A DNA stretch of 7,989 nucleotides, taken from IMG/VR virus record IMGVR_UViG_3300029878_000067. The stretch is one strand, 5' to 3'. The position numbers and the translations under genes are program-made. Of the stretch, positions 2,292 through 7,989 are shown in pieces. The notes below the pieces were generated by a model, which saw only the letters and a program-made list of their open reading frames with translations, did not search any database and was not told the origin of the DNA. This DNA comes from a virus. Its lineage: Duplodnaviria > Heunggongvirae > Uroviricota > Caudoviricetes. The stretch's first letter is position 1. The number at the start of each line of letters is the position of its first letter.

Positions 2292-2471
2292 TCAACGACC
2301 AATCACCACAACCTGACCACCGTCCCCCTCGTCTGCCGTGCTGATCTCCTGAGAAGCCACCCGCGACCCCACGCGCATTTCACCGTACAGAACAGGCAGA
2401 ACATTGCCCTGGGCAACCATGTTATCCAGTGAGGAGAAATAGGTGTTCTGCTTACGCAGCTCTGCTGTCAC
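2292..2471 (-). pseudogene. I: Remnant: first ~6 codons of head protease/scaffold gene C (GTG start at 2471..2469) fused in frame to the C-terminal ~53 codons of tail assembly protein I
   Basis: Seen in sequence: minus-strand reading from GTG gives V/M-TAELR then KQNTYFSSLDNMVAQGNVLPVLYGEMRVGSRVASQEISTADEGDGGQVVVIGR and a stop. Established knowledge: TAELR is the start of lambda gpC and the remainder is the gpI C-terminus. Junction at about 2452 with AA microhomology. The 104-aa ORF in the track (2292..2606) reads out of frame through B sequence for its N-terminal half. Confidence 0.75.
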
Positions 2472-2751
2472 TCTTCTCCTCCTCTGTTGATTGTCGCAGT
2501 CCGGATTCAAATGCCGCAGCCGCCCAGGCGGGCGGTTTAAGACCGGCTGCACGGCGCTCCATCGTTTCACGGACCTGCTGGGCAAAAATTTCCTGATAGT
2601 CGTCACCGCGTTTCGCGCACTCTTTCTCGTAGGTGCTCAGTCCGGCTTCTATCAGCATCACCGCTTCCTGAACTTCTTTCAGACCATCGATGGCCATACG
2701 ACCGGAGCCTATCCAGTCGCAGTTCCCCCAGGCACTGCGGGCTTCCTGAAA
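2452..2751 (-). pseudogene. B: Portal protein B remnant, C-terminal ~99 codons only
   Basis: Seen in sequence: minus-strand frame gives FQEARSAWGNCDWIGSGRMAIDGLKEVQEAVMLIEAGLSTYEKECAKRGDDYQEIFAQQVRETMERRAAGLKPPAWAAAAFESGLRQSTEEEKSDSRAA then TAA at 2454..2452. Established knowledge: matches the remembered C-terminus of lambda gpB. No upstream portal sequence is present; the fragment abuts terminase A sequence out of frame at about 2751. Confidence 0.8.
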
Positions 2752-3533
2752 ACCCCGTTTTTGTTTCGCTTACGTGGCATGCTGGCCACCGGCTTTCCGT
2801 AGACGGATGCCCCTTTAATGGGGATCACCCGGAACAGCCCATGTTTTTTCGAGCGTTCATACACAATGGTCGGGTCAATCCCGCCAGTATCCCAGCAGAT
2901 ACGGGATACCGACATCTCTGCACCATTCCGGCGGGTATAGGTTTTATTGATGGCCTCATCCACACGCAGCAGCGTCTGTTCATCGTCGTGGCGGCCCATA
3001 ATAATCTGCCGGTCAATCAGCCAGCTTTCCTCACCCGGCCCCCATCCCCATACGCGCATTTCGTAGCGATCCAGCTGGGAGTCGATACCGGCGGTCAGGT
3101 AAGCCACACGGTCAGGAACGGACGCTGAATAATGCTCTTTCCGCTCTGCCATCACTTCAGCATCCGGACGTTCGCCGATTTTCGCTTCCCACGTCTCACC
3201 GAGCGTGGTGTTCACGAAGGTTTTACGTTTTCCCGTAAGGGTGTTGCGCTGCTTATGCTCTATGAAGTAGGCATAAACACCCAGCAGCATTTTGGAATAA
3301 CCGACACGGGCANNNNNNNNNNNNNNNNNNNNNNNNNNNNNNNNNNNNNNNNNNNNNNNNNNNNNNNNNNNNNNNNNNNNNCAGCGCCCTTCCTGGTATG
3401 CGGATTCTTTCGGGAGATAGTAACTGGCATCCGCCCATTCAACGGCAGTCTGTGGCTCCGGCCTGAACAGGGCTCGCAGCCCGGCGCGTACATCACGCCG
3501 CAGAATATCAATCTGACTGTTCGATATATTCAC
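2709..3533 (-). pseudogene. A: Terminase large subunit A remnant: N-terminal ~99 codons joined to a C-terminal nuclease-domain segment, then fused out of frame to the B remnant; contains a 69-nt N-run
   Basis: Seen in sequence: translation [15 protein letters not shown]...ARVGYSKMLLGVYAYFIEHKQRNTL is followed directly by TGKRKTFVNTTLGETWEAKIGERPDAEVMAERKEHYSA...MPRKRNKNGV. Established knowledge: in lambda gpA these two blocks are separated by roughly 300 residues (ATPase-domain region), so there is an internal deletion at about 3236. After KNGV the frame runs into B-derived DNA and stops at 2709. The start overlaps Nu1 by 26 nt as in lambda. Confidence 0.85.
3313..3381. other. Run of 69 ambiguous bases (N): assembly gap or masked segment inside the terminase A remnant
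   Basis: Directly visible in the sequence; appears as X residues in three ORF-track translations. Confidence 0.97.
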
Positions 3534-4053
3534 TCAGCAACCCCGGTATCAGTTCATCCAGCGCGGCTGCTTTGTTCATGGCTTTGATGATATCCCGTTT
3601 CAGGAAATCAACATGTCGGTTTTCCAGTTCCGGAAAACGCCGCTGTACCGAGAGAGGGATCCCGTCAAGAATACTGGCAATTTCACCTGCGATCCGTGAC
3701 AGCACGAAAGTACAGAATGCGGTTTCCACCACCTCTGCGGAGTCTCTGGCATTCTTCAGCTCCTGTGCGTCGGCCTGCGCACGCGTAAGTCGATGGCGTT
3801 CGTACTCAATAGTCCCAGGCTGGAGATCTGCCTCACTGGCAGCCCTGTAATCCACAACCTCTTTACGGAGTTTTTCATTTTCGATATCAGCTTCCCTCTG
3901 CGCATACCACTGAATTGCCATGGCGGTATCAAATACAGATTCAACGCCCTTACCACCTCCGGAGACGCAAGGGAGTCCCTGAGACTGCCAGCGTTCAATC
4001 GTTCGCGGATCCACGTTGAAAATTTCGGCAAGTTTCTTTTTATTAACCTTCAT
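3508..4053 (-). CDS. Nu1: Terminase small subunit Nu1 (181 aa), apparently intact
   Basis: ORF-track protein [36 protein letters not shown]... The C-terminal ~100 residues ([60 protein letters not shown]...LSEYIEQS) match my recollection of lambda gpNu1 nearly exactly; the N-terminal DNA-binding region is similar but diverged. Lies cos-proximal with a 26-nt overlap onto the A start, as in lambda. Confidence 0.9.
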
Positions 4054-4080
4054 GAAACAGTCTCACAATAAATACAGGGG

Positions 4081-4190
4081 CCGACATGAAAGTGCCCGAA
4101 AATGACTTTTTTAGGCGTTTTCATGTCGGACCTTTTACGGATTCGATATTAGAAAAAACAAATAGTTATGTTCGAGAAGTACCGACATGA
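4081..4190 (-). promoter_or_regulatory. cosB: three copies of a CCGACATGA-core repeat (4081..4089 direct, 4121..4129 inverted, 4182..4190 direct) with an AT-rich A-tract spacer (about 4141..4175) between the cosN-proximal pair; candidate Nu1 binding sites R3/R2/R1 with a bend/IHF-type site
   Basis: Seen in sequence: GCCGACATGAAAGTG, TTTTCATGTCGGACC (reverse complement TCCGACATGAAAA) and ACCGACATGATTTTC. Inference: the arrangement resembles the multi-R-site cosB architecture of lambdoid phages; site identity is not lambda-like, consistent with the diverged Nu1 N-terminus. Confidence 0.5.
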
Positions 4191-4229
4191 TTTTCCCCGG
4201 AAAATTTTCATAAATAGCGAAAACCCGCG

Positions 4230-4241
4230 AGGTCGCCGCCC
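4230..4241 (-). other. cosN: cosN 12-nt cohesive-end sequence (GGGCGGCGACCT on the minus strand)
   Basis: Exact 12-mer AGGTCGCCGCCC on the plus strand at 4230..4241, embedded in lambda-like flanks, about 177 bp from the Nu1 start codon (lambda spacing is about 179). Confidence 0.85.
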
Positions 4242-4464
4242 CGTAACCTGTCGGATCGCCGGAAAGGACCCGCCAACGACTTTCGCGTGCAGGCATTAAA
4301 AATTTTGCAGTTCCATGCCTAGTTGAAACCTCGATTTCTATAACATCCAATTTTGTAAATTTAGATATAGCTCAACTTTTCCCAATGTTTTCAAGTGTAT
4401 AAAAACAATTGGCGTTACGCCATAACACTATACTTAGGATAAGTAAAGATTTTAAGGAGTTTTA

Positions 4465-5532
4465 ATGAGTCAACATCAATATTACCCACAGCTGAAATGG
4501 AAGCCTGCTGAATATGAATCTCTGATGCTTTTAGATCAAACTACGCTCTCTGGTTTTACTCCGATCATTACCATTCCAGACATAGACTGGGATTATGAAA
4601 ACGAATGCTACAAGAAGAGTTTGAGTTCTTACTTATCTGACTTCGGTATTAACCTTGCGGCATCCTGGAAAGCCAATCGTCCTGTTTTGCTGGATGTTAA
4701 ATATTTAGATAAACATGGTTCGAGCCGCCATCATCCTCTAGATATGTGTATCCAAGATGCTAGAGTAAATGGTAAGGAAATTATCCCTGTTGTCTCTCCC
4801 GCATATTCAACAAACTATATACATGCTGTTCAACGCAACTTAATCAATGGGCTCGCTATATCTATCACCCCCCAGACATGGCACCAATTCACAAGTCTGG
4901 TTAACCACTTAAATATTCATCCTAGTTTAATTGATGTAATCATTGATTTTGGAGATATTCAAAACGCAACTGATAGTTTAAAACAACAAGCATTAAGCAT
5001 GGTCAACACATTATCAGGCCAAGCTCCGTGGAGAAACTTGATTTTATCTTCAACCGCATACCCTGCATCACAGGCAGGGATACCGCAACATCAAGTTCAT
5101 CATATTCCGCGCCATGAATACGATCTTTGGATGTATGTAGTACAGAATTTTAGCAATGGAAGAACGCCAAGTTTTAGTGATTATCCCACCGCTAGCTCTA
5201 CCATTACGAGCGTAGACCCACGCTTCATGTCTCAGTATGTCTCAGTGAGATATTCGAACGATACCTCATGGATCTTTGTAAAAGGTACCGCAGTTAAAGG
5301 AAATGGATGGGGCCAAACTAAAAACTTATGTACTACCCTTGTTAGTTCGCCAGAGTATCAAGTCTTTGGCTCCAAATTTAGTTGGGGGGATGATTACATT
5401 TACCAAAGATCATTAGGCGCTAACAAATCTGGCGGCTCTAAAGAATGGCGTAAAGTTGCACATACGCACCATATTACGTTAGTCGTGAGACAGCTTTATT
5501 GGTTGGCGCAGACTCAGCCTGCCAAGCCTTAA
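4465..5532 (+). CDS. Hypothetical protein, 355 aa, AT-rich cargo gene; function unknown
   Basis: Seen in sequence: long ORF with a perfect AAGGAG at 4454..4459, 5 nt before the ATG; GC content visibly lower than the flanking phage genes (by eye, not computed); AT-rich upstream region with -10-like hexamers (TATAAA 4398..4403, TATACT 4429..4434). Protein begins MSQHQYYPQLKWKPAEYESL; no nucleotide-binding or catalytic motif that I can assign with confidence. Confidence 0.72.
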   Translation: MSQHQYYPQLKWKPAEYESLMLLDQTTLSGFTPIITIPDIDWDYENECYKKSLSSYLSDFGINLAASWKANRPVLLDVKYLDKHGSSRHHPLDMCIQDARVNGKEIIPVVSPAYSTNYIHAVQRNLINGLAISITPQTWHQFTSLVNHLNIHPSLIDVIIDFGDIQNATDSLKQQALSMVNTLSGQAPWRNLILSSTAYPASQAGIPQHQVHHIPRHEYDLWMYVVQNFSNGRTPSFSDYPTASSTITSVDPRFMSQYVSVRYSNDTSWIFVKGTAVKGNGWGQTKNLCTTLVSSPEYQVFGSKFSWGDDYIYQRSLGANKSGGSKEWRKVAHTHHITLVVRQLYWLAQTQPAKP

Positions 5533-6094
5533 CTTTCCAGCCTACGCGTTTCTTTAAGGCTGTTCTGACTTCAAGCCTGAGATTCGCTATTGGAATATTT
5601 TCCGCAATAATATTCCATAACTCAAATCGGGGCTTGCTTTTGATTCCTTTGGAATAGCCCCATCGTTCAAGTACGTCGATACATTCATCTTTCCAAAGCA
5701 ATTGAGCGAGCATCAATGAGTTATGGTTTCGATTAAGCTTTTCTCCACGCATGTGCTTTATAAGAATGGCGCCTTTTGGCCCAACAGAAACCGTTTTAAC
5801 GCCCCACCAACCTGGGATTAACTTTAATGCTCCCTCAAGATGTTTCTCAGCTACGACAAGAGTAACCTTGTCCATTACAGAAGAATAATGCTTGATTTGA
5901 AGAGGCAAACGCTCCAAAGAGTCATATTCACTTTTGAGCTCGTACCCGTGTATAACACCATTTATTACAGCAATGTCTGCTCTACTGGCGCCAAGGGATA
6001 TGGAAAATTCATCGACCACAAGGCAGTCAGGATCTAAATGCGATTCTTTCAAAAGCTTATGATGCACCGCGAACCTAACATCTTGATCTTTCAT
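5474..6094 (-). CDS. Hypothetical protein, 206 aa, with a PD-(D/E)xK nuclease-like motif; AT-rich cargo gene
   Basis: Seen in sequence: ORF with AAGGAG (plus-strand CTCCTT at 6100..6105) 5 nt before the ATG. Protein contains LVVDEF ... SRADIAVING ... HGYELKSEYD, i.e. an acidic residue, then D, then E-x-K about 11 residues later, in an alternating strand/helix context. Inference: this is the signature of restriction-endonuclease-like folds. Convergent with, and overlapping by 59 nt, the 355-aa gene. Confidence 0.7.
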   Translation of the reverse strand: MKDQDVRFAVHHKLLKESHLDPDCLVVDEFSISLGASRADIAVINGVIHGYELKSEYDSLERLPLQIKHYSSVMDKVTLVVAEKHLEGALKLIPGWWGVKTVSVGPKGAILIKHMRGEKLNRNHNSLMLAQLLWKDECIDVLERWGYSKGIKSKPRFELWNIIAENIPIANLRLEVRTALKKRVGWKVKAWQAESAPTNKAVSRLT

Positions 6095-6122
6095 GACTTC
6101 TCCTTACTCCCTCCGTTACTGA

Positions 6123-6128
6123 ATTATA
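6123..6128 (-). promoter_or_regulatory. Candidate -10 hexamer (perfect TATAAT on the minus strand) about 30 nt upstream of the 206-aa gene start
   Basis: Plus-strand ATTATA at 6123..6128 is TATAAT on the minus strand; no good -35 match at 16..18 bp spacing; an adjacent tandem repeat occupies the -35 zone. Confidence 0.3.
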
Positions 6129-6132
6129 GCGC

Positions 6133-6151
6133 ACTGCATTTTACTGCATTT
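6133..6151. repeat. Tandem direct repeat ACTGCATTT x2 with 10-bp periodicity, immediately upstream of the candidate -10 of the 206-aa gene
   Basis: Plus strand reads CACTGCATTT TACTGCATTT at 6132..6151; one helical turn apart; located where a -35 element or activator/repressor site would sit. Confidence 0.5.
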
Positions 6152-6445
6152 GAGAGATTTGACCACTTCAATCACAAAATGCTTATCTGCAGCAACAAGA
6201 TTCATAGCCATACGACTATGGTGATTACCTTTTGTCTGGAAAACTGACCATTCCACGAAGATCAGATAGGTCTATAGAATCTTGGTTTGTCATAGCGTTC
6301 GCCTTACTTTGAGATGAACCTTTGCTGCATAGGAGATCAGCCCGTCAAGGCTCACCAGCACTAACTGACTACTCAAAGGCTCATTCCAAAGGGTTTGGTT
6401 CGACGTGGTTGAGTGCGCTGCGGTGCGCGGTGAAATACCTGTACA

Positions 6446-6473
6446 AAAATGCCCCGCATCTGCGAGGCATTTT
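6446..6473 (-). terminator. Terminator-like hairpin about 38 bp downstream of Rz, flanked by an A-run and a T-run (potentially bidirectional)
   Basis: Seen in sequence: AAAAATGCCCCGCATCTGCGAGGCATTTTCC. GCC/GGC and CGC/GCG pair around an ATCT loop with A-T extension; on the minus strand the stem is followed by TTTTTGTAC (5 U), on the plus strand by TTTTCC (4 U). No folding energy was computed. Confidence 0.42.
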
Positions 6474-6510
6474 CCTGAAAGTCACTTGTTAAATTTCAGT
6501 GAAATTAAAA

Positions 6511-6963
6511 TTATTTTAAGCACTGCGTCCTGATGTACTCCTGCAAGTAGTTAACCTGCGCGGTTATCTTGTCGATTCCACTTCGGAGACGGTAATAATT
6601 GAGTTCAGCATCTGCTGTAAGTCCTGGGCTTTCTCCATTGCCCATGCCGCTGGCTCCGGTCGTTGACTTTGCACAGGTGGCGGCGACTTGCAGGCGCTTA
6701 CGCCCAACAGAAACATCAGCACGTAGACTTTCGATAGTCGCGTTAGCATCAGCAAGCTCCTTTGTGTATCTTGCGTCGAGTTCTGCTACATCACGTTGAC
6801 GCTTCCGCATGTCAGCGATGATGTACGTGGCTTTATCGCGCTGTTCTTTATAGGTAATGGCATTATCACGGTAATGATTAACAGCCCATGACAGGCAGAC
6901 GATGATGCAGATAACCAGAGCATAAATAATCGCGGCGACTCTGCTCACTGATCTATCCCCCAA
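6511..6963 (-). CDS. Rz: Spanin inner-membrane subunit Rz (i-spanin), 150 aa
   Basis: Protein has an N-terminal TM segment [30 protein letters not shown] and a coiled-coil-like remainder; closely resembles remembered lambda Rz; sits immediately downstream of the endolysin with a 19-nt overlap. Confidence 0.85.
6564..6755 (-). CDS. Rz1: Spanin outer-membrane lipoprotein subunit Rz1 (o-spanin), embedded in the +1 frame of Rz
   Basis: ORF entirely inside Rz in another frame; signal-peptide-like N-terminus with lipobox-like VSAC followed by a proline-rich segment [16 protein letters not shown], the typical Rz1 architecture. The true start could be an internal Met. Confidence 0.72.
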
Positions 6964-7478
6964 CAGGCTAATGCGCTTTCCTGGTCACGACGAATAACCT
7001 GTCCATAGCAGTTATTTGAACGTATGCGGCAATCGCGCCCACCATCTTTTATCCACCAGCGAATCGCCTCGCATGCACCTTTACGATCACCGGCATTCAG
7101 CCGCTTATAAAACGTCGACGGGAAACACTTACCGGGGCCAATGTTATAGGGACAGAATGACGCTATACCCGCTTTTTGTGGTTCGGTCAGTGGTACTTTA
7201 ATATTGCGCTCCACCCATGCCAGCGCCTTATCACGCTCAATGGCGTTGACCTGGTCGCATTTTTCCTTCGACAGTTTCATACCGGGAAAAACGGGTTTTC
7301 CATCCACCATCGTGGCACCCCGACAGATGGTCCAGATGCCGGACCCATCGCGGTATGCCGTTGTGTGGTTACCTTCTTTTTCATCCAGAAACTGGTCGAG
7401 AATATCAGGCGCGGGCGCACCGACGGCAATCAGTGCCAGAACGGCAGCCGACAGGCCGTATCTGATTTTTGCGTTCAT
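6945..7478 (-). CDS. R: Endolysin R, T4-lysozyme-type (GH24) muramidase with N-terminal SAR (signal-anchor-release) domain, 177 aa
   Basis: Catalytic-triad spacing E-x8-D-x5-T in [23 protein letters not shown]; Gly/Ala-rich weakly hydrophobic N-terminus [16 protein letters not shown] typical of SAR endolysins; from memory, near-identical to E. coli cryptic-prophage lysozyme RrrQ and similar to phage 21 R. Confidence 0.9.
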
Positions 7479-7541
7479 GGATATTTATCAGGATTTATCG
7501 GTTTCTGCCCACGGACAGGTTTATCTGTTCCGGTCAGTGAC

Positions 7542-7892
7542 TTAAGGTTGTGATTCCGGAGGAGTCTTCAGAGAACCAGTAATTCTTCCCGGTAGCTTTC
7601 CTTTGTAGGTTATCCATACATTCTGCGCCTCTAAAATTACGGGGCGCTTTTCCGGCGACTGCTCATCCCCTTCACATAACCCGGCAGCAACATCCAGGAA
7701 GACCTGTCTGATGCTCATTCTGGCTGCTGCCTCATAAAACTCCAGCGCGGCACCTTCAACACGGTCCAGCGAGATGTCCAGGTCAAAAATTTCACCGTCA
7801 AAGCGTTTTTTGTCCCGTAACGCTAAAGTTACCGTAACTTTATTCTCAAAATTGCGGATCCCTTTCACAATCAGTTCATAGTTTTGAGTCAT
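7542..7892 (-). CDS. Small phage protein of unknown function between holin and endolysin (YdfR/DUF1327-like, assignment from memory), 116 aa
   Basis: ORF with start ATG at 7892..7890, 5 nt after the holin stop; its position between the S and R homologs mirrors the essQ-ydfR-rrrQ order of the E. coli Qin prophage as I recall it. No motif verified. Confidence 0.55.
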   Translation of the reverse strand: MTQNYELIVKGIRNFENKVTVTLALRDKKRFDGEIFDLDISLDRVEGAALEFYEAAARMSIRQVFLDVAAGLCEGDEQSPEKRPVILEAQNVWITYKGKLPGRITGSLKTPPESQP

Positions 7893-7896
7893 TGAA

Positions 7897-7989
7897 TTAC
7901 TCTCCCCGTGCCGCCTTACGACGGTCCTCTCTGATTTTGAAATACAGGTTAGTCAGATATGTCAGCAGCCCAAACAGCAGACTCCCCAG
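7897..7989 (-). CDS. S: Holin S (phage 21-type class II pinholin), C-terminal 30 codons; N-terminus beyond the window end
   Basis: Minus-strand translation of the window end reads [30 protein letters not shown] then stop (TAA at 7899..7897); matches the remembered C-terminus of phage 21 S / E. coli EssD. Absent from the ORF track because the start is outside the window. Confidence 0.78.

Follow-up and report, generated by a model that had tools for sequence, protein, structure and literature searches.

A cos site that lies between an intact small terminase gene and a dead large terminase gene raises the question whether it can still be recognised by an infecting phage, and whether the genes beside it would be moved along. 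Here, we address this question for a stretch of 7,989 nt (the window), which corresponds, on its minus strand, to the late region of a lambdoid prophage and is assigned to a lambda-like, part-deleted prophage of E. coli. A preliminary description, made from the letters of the window, had proposed lambda-type cosN and cosQ sites combined with a non-lambda cosB, and had suggested that a lambdoid phage of matching cos specificity could package the element in trans and thus mobilise the adjacent cargo cassette. Very probably, as far as sequence comparison can tell, the region is a lambdoid prophage cos with the packaging specificity of phage 21, which carries the lambda allele from cosQ through cosN up to bp 45. 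The mobilisation of the cargo is a different matter and is treated below. All features are collected in Table 1.

Table 1. Features of the window, in order of position. Deletion junctions are given relative to the E. coli WP5-S17-ESBL-10 prophage.
Feature	Position	Strand	Remarks
J (tail), first 743 codons	1-2231	minus	ORF open
I (tail) 3' end and J	within 1-2455	minus	mapped against intact prophage
Deletion 1, 10,839 bp, I to C	junction 2452-2455
Portal gene 3' end	2452-2751	minus	overlaps start of S49 protease gene; abuts I 3' end and J
Large terminase A remnant	2709-3533	minus	about residues 1-103 and 350-512, then out of frame into portal 3' end
Deletion 2, 1,888 bp, A 3' end, W and most of portal	junction 2750-2751
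Deletion 3, in-frame, 741 bp inside A	junction 3236-3237
Nu1 (TerS), 181 aa, intact	3508-4053	minus	Pfam Phage_Nu1 6.5e-90
cos interval, 222 bp	4054-4275	minus	complete lambdoid cos
R1 box TTTCATGTCGGCCCCT	4076-4091	minus	core same as phage 21 R1 TTTCATGTCGGGCCTT
R2 box AAGGTCCGACATGAAA	4119-4134	minus	inverted relative to R3 and R1; 16/16 against annotated phage 21 R2
IHF-like site I1 AAACAAATAGTTA	4156-4168	plus	one mismatch to WATCAANNNNTTR; between R3 and R2
R3 box AATCATGTCGGTACTT	4177-4192 (bp 50-65)	minus	15/16 against annotated phage 21 R3
Lambda-allele segment, +13 to +45	4197-4229	minus	between cosN and cosB; contains stretch of M81255 IHF site I2
cosN 12-nt cohesive end GGGCGGCGACCT	4230-4241	minus	same in lambda and phage 21
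cosQ heptamer GGGTCCT	4265-4271	minus	-30 to -24 from nick
Cargo gene 1, P4 beta family	4465-5532	plus	Pfam Beta_protein 8e-56; PADLOC beta and PD-Lambda-2_C
Cargo gene 2, P4 cII-like (sce7726 family)	5474-6094	minus	PADLOC 'cll' 3e-31; PF26915 Phage_P4_cII
Rz	6511-6963	minus	Pfam Phage_lysis; Rz1 embedded at 6564-6755
R lysozyme	6945-7478	minus	Pfam Phage_lysozyme
DUF1327/YdfR gene	7542-7892		

Positions within cos are counted from the left cohesive end, such that bp n corresponds to window position 4242-n and base 1 to position 4241. cosN and its flank on the cosQ side had been described as lambda-identical. This holds for bases +1 to +45, which agree with lambda in 45/45 and with phage 21 in 41/45 positions, but not fully for the cosQ side, where 30 of the last 31 bases agree with lambda and the remaining one, a T to C exchange at -17, is also found in K-12 DLP12. 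cosQ is required for packaging termination. Its heptamer is the same in lambda, phage 21, the Escherichia phage IdasGreatGrand, DLP12 and Qin, and is invariant in 5/5 aligned cos sites; the GenBank entry of the phage 21 head operon, M81255, labels its equivalent as R4. The spacing from cosN to R3 is kept as well, with no insertion or deletion within bp 1-65 relative to either lambda or phage 21.

Within cosB, three repeats in direct, inverted and direct orientation had been noted, and they are indeed there with exact cores. The 9-mer core CCGACATGA occurs at 4081-4089 (plus strand), 4121-4129 (minus strand) and 4182-4190 (plus strand), and nowhere else in the window. Since approximately 0.06 exact matches of a 9-mer are expected on both strands of 7,989 bases, three copies inside 110 bp far exceed chance. 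The entry M81255 annotates R4/cosQ, cosN, I2, R3, I1, R2, R1 and I0, and the comparison with phage 21 that the preliminary description had suggested identifies the repeats: in the alignment, they coincide exactly with R3, R2 and R1 of this phage. The candidate I1 site is the sole WATCAANNNNTTR-like match in the cos region and takes the same position as I1 in M81255. The resulting order, R3, I1, R2 (inverted) and R1, is that of a complex cosB. Judged from these elements, the "non-lambda cosB" is the cosB of phage 21, a textbook type.

Lambda and phage 21 each prefer their own DNA for packaging, by a factor of more than 1,000 over that of the other, and this discrimination rests on bp 56 and 59 of R3 and on residues 20 and 24 of TerS (PMC4669245). 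The R3 box reads AATCATGTCGGTACTT in the window, AATCGTGTCGGTACTT in phage 21 and AGGCGTTTCCGTTCTT in lambda, such that both the window and phage 21 have G at bp 56 and G at bp 59, where lambda has T and C, respectively. On the protein side, the recognition helix of Nu1 (residues 17-24) is RTIERWQS, with E20 and S24, which is the same as in gp1 of phage 21, whereas lambda has RTIQNWQE. The idea that a cosB different from that of lambda fits a diverged N-terminal half of Nu1 is thus borne out, with 21-type R boxes on the one side and a 21-type recognition helix on the other. A new cosB specificity class is ruled out, because the R boxes and the recognition helix match those of phage 21.

Nu1 itself is intact, as had been proposed, being an unbroken ORF of 181 codons with a Pfam Phage_Nu1 hit (6.5e-90). 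Its two ends have different relatives. Residues 1-66 share 59/66 positions with gp1 of phage 21 and 40/66 with lambda, while residues 101-181 share 79/81 positions with lambda Nu1 and 31/81 with phage 21. Going by these identities, Nu1 is a natural chimera of a 21-type winged-helix DNA-binding domain and a lambda-type part for oligomerisation and gpA binding. A sliding comparison across the DNA gives the same picture: the segment from -33 to +46 is lambda-like (identity 0.93-0.97), the segment from +47 to approximately +366 is 21-like (0.72-0.95 to phage 21 and 0.53-0.72 to lambda), and beyond approximately +407, through the rest of Nu1 and into A, the sequence is again lambda-like (0.88-1.00).

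In phage 21, the R boxes and IHF sites, as well as the determinants of TerS specificity, were mapped decades ago, and the feature described here is already known: it is a classical phage 21-type cos together with a common natural chimeric TerS. The phage 21 cos (M81255, X02501; Feiss laboratory) shares with the window cosQ, cosN, I2, R3, I1, the inverted R2, R1 and gene 1. It differs in that the window carries the lambda allele from +1 to +45 (4 differences), has a 1-bp insertion between I1 and R2 that is common to IdasGreatGrand, is approximately 84% identical overall, and encodes a TerS whose C-terminal two-thirds are lambda-type. Close parallels also come from the laboratory. The long-used hybrid 21hy51 combines cosB21 with a TerS of 21-type N-terminus and Nu1-type C-terminus and with lambda gpA (PMC4669245, PMC9026076). 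Other laboratory lambda-21 hybrids join lambda cosQ and cosN to cosB21, of which the window version is a natural mosaic. With such a combination of lambda cosQ, lambda cosN and cosB21, packaging succeeds with a 21-specific helper (yield 1.24), but not with a lambda-specific one (1e-4) (PMC4669245).

The module is not confined to the window. Over cos and Nu1, the isolated phage IdasGreatGrand (PP925829) shows 99.1% identity, and only two positions differ from cosQ up to the start codon of Nu1. In all, 14 phage records contain cosB21-like sequence, among them phage 21, ev017, 4A7, 1W and 3W. Phages of matching cos specificity, as postulated earlier, do exist, phage 21 and IdasGreatGrand among them. 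In bacterial genomes, the 222-bp cos was recovered at a coverage of at least 80% from 833 of the 5,426 complete E. coli genomes, and the cosQ/cosN part from 4,609 of them. The exact 181-aa Nu1 occurs in 512 indexed blocks of the protein collection. Among the 10 listed of these 512, the 641-aa gpA, W and the head and tail genes are intact in all 10 and the portal gene in 9. The combination of lambda cosN, cosB21 and chimeric Nu1 is therefore a common and functional natural module, which full-length prophages and an isolated phage share. From its identity to the copies that intact prophages and a live phage carry, we infer that the window copy of cos is functional, too. An origin of the chimeric Nu1 within the remnant is ruled out, because the same protein adjoins intact gpA in many genomes and is the normal TerS of these prophages.

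In the window, genes downstream of Nu1 have been lost. A full-length relative is the prophage of E. coli WP5-S17-ESBL-10 (NZ_AP022105), which is collinear with the window, 99.6% identical over window positions 3382-7989 and 100% identical in cos. It has the same beta/cII cargo, but retains A, W and a complete head-to-tail set, in which portal, protease and tape measure are annotated as frameshifted. Relative to this prophage, three deletions account for the loss of the large terminase, portal and head genes, in agreement with the earlier description, as well as of W and most tail genes; the largest takes out C through most of I. With locus L005 (15795-17720) as the intact A reference for mapping of the remnant, gpA is reduced to approximately residues 1-103 and 350-512. 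Therefore, A is dead, as had been stated, owing to the 741-bp internal loss and the 1,888-bp loss that includes its 3' end. Positions 3313-3381 within the A remnant are masked as a run of 69 N; the corresponding stretch is 78 nt long in both lambda and the intact homologue.

Read from this map, the window represents a recent deletion derivative of a full-length lambdoid prophage. At 100%, the identity of Nu1 to intact copies indicates that the deletion is recent and carries no sign of selection. cos and Nu1 are intact since they have not yet decayed, and nothing shows that they are selected. The junctions were not recovered from the collections searched. The 39-mer that spans the J/portal deletion junction has zero exact matches in the GTDB species representatives, IMG/VR and the JGI metagenomes, junction-spanning queries gave no collinear one-piece match in the 5,426 complete E. 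coli genomes, and the 104-aa ORF that crosses the junction had no exact counterpart. The sole 100% match to a junction query, in EcPF15, is an independent deletion, in which gene I is joined to the S49 protease gene in a prophage at the DLP12 site.

How could such a cos be used? A co-resident or superinfecting phage with a 21-type TerS could bind R3, R2 and R1 together with IHF and nick cosN. After cutting, terminase remains with the end that carries cosB, and this end sets the direction of translocation (PMC9026076 section 1.1). In the window, translocation would thus run toward decreasing coordinates, through Nu1, the A remnant and J and then into host DNA, and without a downstream cos it would end as a stalled tailless particle. 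This course is described for packaging that initiates at the cos of a resident prophage: adjacent bacterial DNA is packaged, the process stalls at a full head, and the particle is tailless and non-infectious (PMC4669245 section 18). Without excision, packaging from the window cos should, on this analysis, yield abortive particles. Since translocation proceeds toward Nu1, whereas the cargo (4465-6094) is located beyond cosQ, the cargo would not be taken up from this cos, and it is unlikely that neighbouring genes are carried into phage particles via the window cos.

Packaging of the cargo can be expected only if the whole element excises and concatemerises, or if the window cos acts as a terminal cos. 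The excision route needs int/att and a suitable element length, neither of which is visible within the 8 kb. In the second case, the cosB and Nu1 of the window would be irrelevant. There is a published example of packaging in trans. Defective lambdoid prophages of O157 Sakai without head or packaging functions are packaged after excision, and the terminase-defective Sp4 among them is packaged probably by the terminase of Sp14 via a near-identical cos (PMC2669165). With this precedent, even a favourable version of trans-packaging would not be new. The earlier suggestion that trans-packaging moves the cargo hence stands only in part: the cos is intact and matching phages exist, but the cargo sits on the cosQ side and an unexcised cos should be abortive.

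These considerations bear directly on the reading of the locus as a satellite-like remnant, for which a 21-specific helper would provide TerL and capsids and the cos, with or without its own Nu1, would be recognised, such that particles would take up and transduce the element together with its beta/cII cargo. We regard this as quite improbable. It would be in agreement with a cos that is intact and the same as in functional copies, with an intact Nu1 whose gpA-binding half is lambda-type, with live phages that have the same cosB, and with the packaging of Sp4 (PMC2669165). It is at odds with the position of the cargo, upstream relative to the packaging direction, and with the stalled tailless particles that arise from an unexcised prophage cos. 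Furthermore, the collinearity of the window with an ordinary full-length prophage, along with the lysis genes and J that it still contains, points to simple decay and not to a satellite gene set, and integrase, replication, Rpp-like or capsid-redirecting genes are not visible within the 8-kb window. Length is a further point against this reading: with a lower packaging limit of lambda heads at roughly 78%, the loss of approximately 13.5 kb from a phage of approximately 47-50 kb would leave the element near or below this minimum.

A comparison with cos-type PICIs leads to the same result. They resemble the window in having a lambda-like cosN with a different sequence at the position of cosB, and in their dependence on TerL and capsids of a helper (PMC9026076). 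They differ in that they have Rpp, integrase, replication and helper-responsive regulation and no lysis or tail genes; in the window, TerS is an ordinary one, and both lysis genes and J are present. A satellite or PICI identity is rejected from the gene content of the 8 kb (Rz, Rz1, R, DUF1327, J) and from collinearity with a full prophage.

If the cargo is not moved by the cos next to it, the question arises of how it came there. The beta-like gene has 22% identity to P4 beta and starts approximately 190 bp beyond cosQ; the cII-like gene has 26% identity to P4 cII and converges on beta with a 59-bp overlap. The convergent order is as in P4. In P4 itself, the gop-beta-cII system is a neighbour of cos and confers protection against lambda and P1 (PMC9122126). 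In the window, no gop-sized ORF is found upstream of beta, where only approximately 190 bp are left up to cosQ. From these similarities, the cargo is best described as distant P4 beta/cII homologues without gop. A scan for promoters and terminators over 3900-6600 gave fewer promoter-like matches than shuffled sequence.

The interval between Rz and cos behaves as a slot. Among the places listed, at least five different cargo sets between Rz and cos adjoin the same Nu1, and the same cargo stands beside a fully 21-type terminase in BR1220 and beside a different TerS of 169 aa in TOE17. IdasGreatGrand, which differs from the window by its intact large terminase, head and tail genes, has an anti-repressor and a hypothetical protein in this slot. 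Homology to phage 21 and IdasGreatGrand starts exactly at cosQ. On the other side, the lysis block Rz/Rz1/R (6511-7478) represents the second conserved flank; identity to IdasGreatGrand is 91% from 6290 onward, and 99% in the flank of cos, Nu1 and A. New phages can also arise when a lytic phage recombines with a resident prophage (PMC4669245). Most plausibly, homologous recombination in the conserved flanks, i.e., Rz/R and cos-Nu1-A, is the likelier route of the cargo.

Two cryptic prophages of K-12, DLP12 (nohD, aaaD pseudogene) and Qin (nohA), provide a further comparison. As in the window, lysis genes, morons, cos and an intact Nu1 homologue are kept, and A is lost, being truncated or absent and fused to tail-fibre remnants. 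They differ from the window by a lambda-type cosB and lambda-type N-termini of Nu1, and by their cargo (bor, ybcV and others). The recurrence of cos and Nu1 retention in DLP12 and Qin could be a hint of selection over chance.

This recurrence also bears on the least probable reading, to which we assign hardly any weight, namely that the locus interferes with packaging. The orphan Nu1 would divert lambda gpA to the chromosomal cosB21, and/or the cos would soak up 21-specific terminase; dead-end particles and a lower phage yield would follow, complementing the defence-like beta/cII cassette. The chimeric architecture exactly fits a coupling of lambda gpA to cosB21 (PMC9026076), and initiation at a resident prophage cos lowers the efficiency with which viable progeny phage are produced (Feiss and co-workers, PMC4669245). 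In addition, cos and Nu1 are kept and A is lost in three independent cryptic prophages (window, DLP12, Qin), and the cargo next to cos is related to a system directed against lambda and P1. Yet the same chimeric Nu1 is the usual TerS in many intact prophages with intact gpA, and its identity to these copies is complete, with no signal of selection. Moreover, Nu1 is part of the late operon and requires Q-dependent read-through, which is absent from the window, and the support for interference is purely architectural. If true, this reading would add a role in packaging interference for cryptic prophage remnants, and would explain why cos and Nu1 are retained with loss of A in the window, DLP12 and Qin.

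Taking the locus as a recently deleted lambdoid prophage with a phage 21-type cos, its value lies primarily in annotation. E. coli prophages commonly contain cosB21-type sites, with a TerS that is either chimeric or 21-type throughout, and the window cos is carried by approximately 15% of the complete E. coli genomes. The interval from Rz to cosQ represents a variable cargo slot, which is occupied here by a gop-less relative of P4 beta/cII.

The cosB interval and the start of Nu1, the small terminase subunit (TerS) gene, form a natural module. Between two sharp joints lie a cosB and a TerS DNA-binding module of phage 21 type, while the surrounding sequence is otherwise of lambda type. The same module is found in laboratory lambda-21 hybrids. 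On the other side, cosQ marks the exact start of homology between phages, and the slot between Rz and cosQ is variable. At least five different gene sets in this slot accompany an identical Nu1 protein in the compared loci: no genes at all, Bor together with a TonB_C protein, the beta/cII pair, a lone beta gene, and small ORFs. Conversely, three different TerS types adjoin the same beta/cII pair. The Rz1-like reading frame inside Rz represents the usual spanin arrangement.

Features of the late region in window coordinates
Feature	Position	Strand	Remark
Deletion junction, 10,839 bp lost	2452-2455		vs intact WP5-S17-ESBL-10 prophage
Deletion junction, 1,888 bp lost	2750-2751		vs intact WP5-S17-ESBL-10 prophage
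Deletion junction, 741 bp lost	3236-3237		in frame within A; vs WP5-S17-ESBL-10 prophage
Run of 69 N	3313-3381		inside A remnant
Mosaic joint 2	~3836-3875		Nu1 codons ~60-73
Mosaic joint 1	4196/4197		bp +45/+46
Variable cargo slot, Rz to cosQ	4273-6290		compared loci L007-L016, L020, L006
Cargo pair, distant homologues of P4 beta and cII	4465-6094		convergent
Rz1-like lipoprotein ORF, 63 aa	6564-6755	-	lipobox LLGVSAC; out of frame within Rz

The three deletion junctions show overlaps of 2-4 bp, and none of them was matched in any collection searched (GTDB species representatives, IMG/VR and JGI metagenomes for the J/portal junction, 5,426 complete E. coli genomes for junction-spanning queries). 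The run of N in the remnant of A, the large terminase gene, is a mask or an assembly gap; it corresponds to 78 nt in lambda and in the closest intact homologue, a length discrepancy of 9 nt. The same pattern of decay is observed in two cryptic prophages of E. coli K-12, DLP12 (L017, 576000-584000) and Qin (L018, 1632000-1642000). In both, the cos is of lambda type and looks intact, and a homologue of Nu1 persists at full length (NohD in DLP12, NohA in Qin), while A is truncated or lost. In the prophage at the DLP12 site of E. coli EcPF15 (L021, ~8943-9298), an independent deletion fuses the tail assembly gene I to an S49 head protease gene, which suggests that head-to-tail deletions are recurrent in such prophages.

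The cargo of the window comprises a beta homologue of 355 aa and a cII homologue of 206 aa, the latter of the sce7726 family, whose genes overlap by 59 bp; a gop gene is absent from the cargo interval. In satellite P4, gop-beta-cII acts against lambda and P1 (PMC9122126) and likewise adjoins a cos site. The beta/cII pair without gop may represent a variant defence system of lambdoid prophages.
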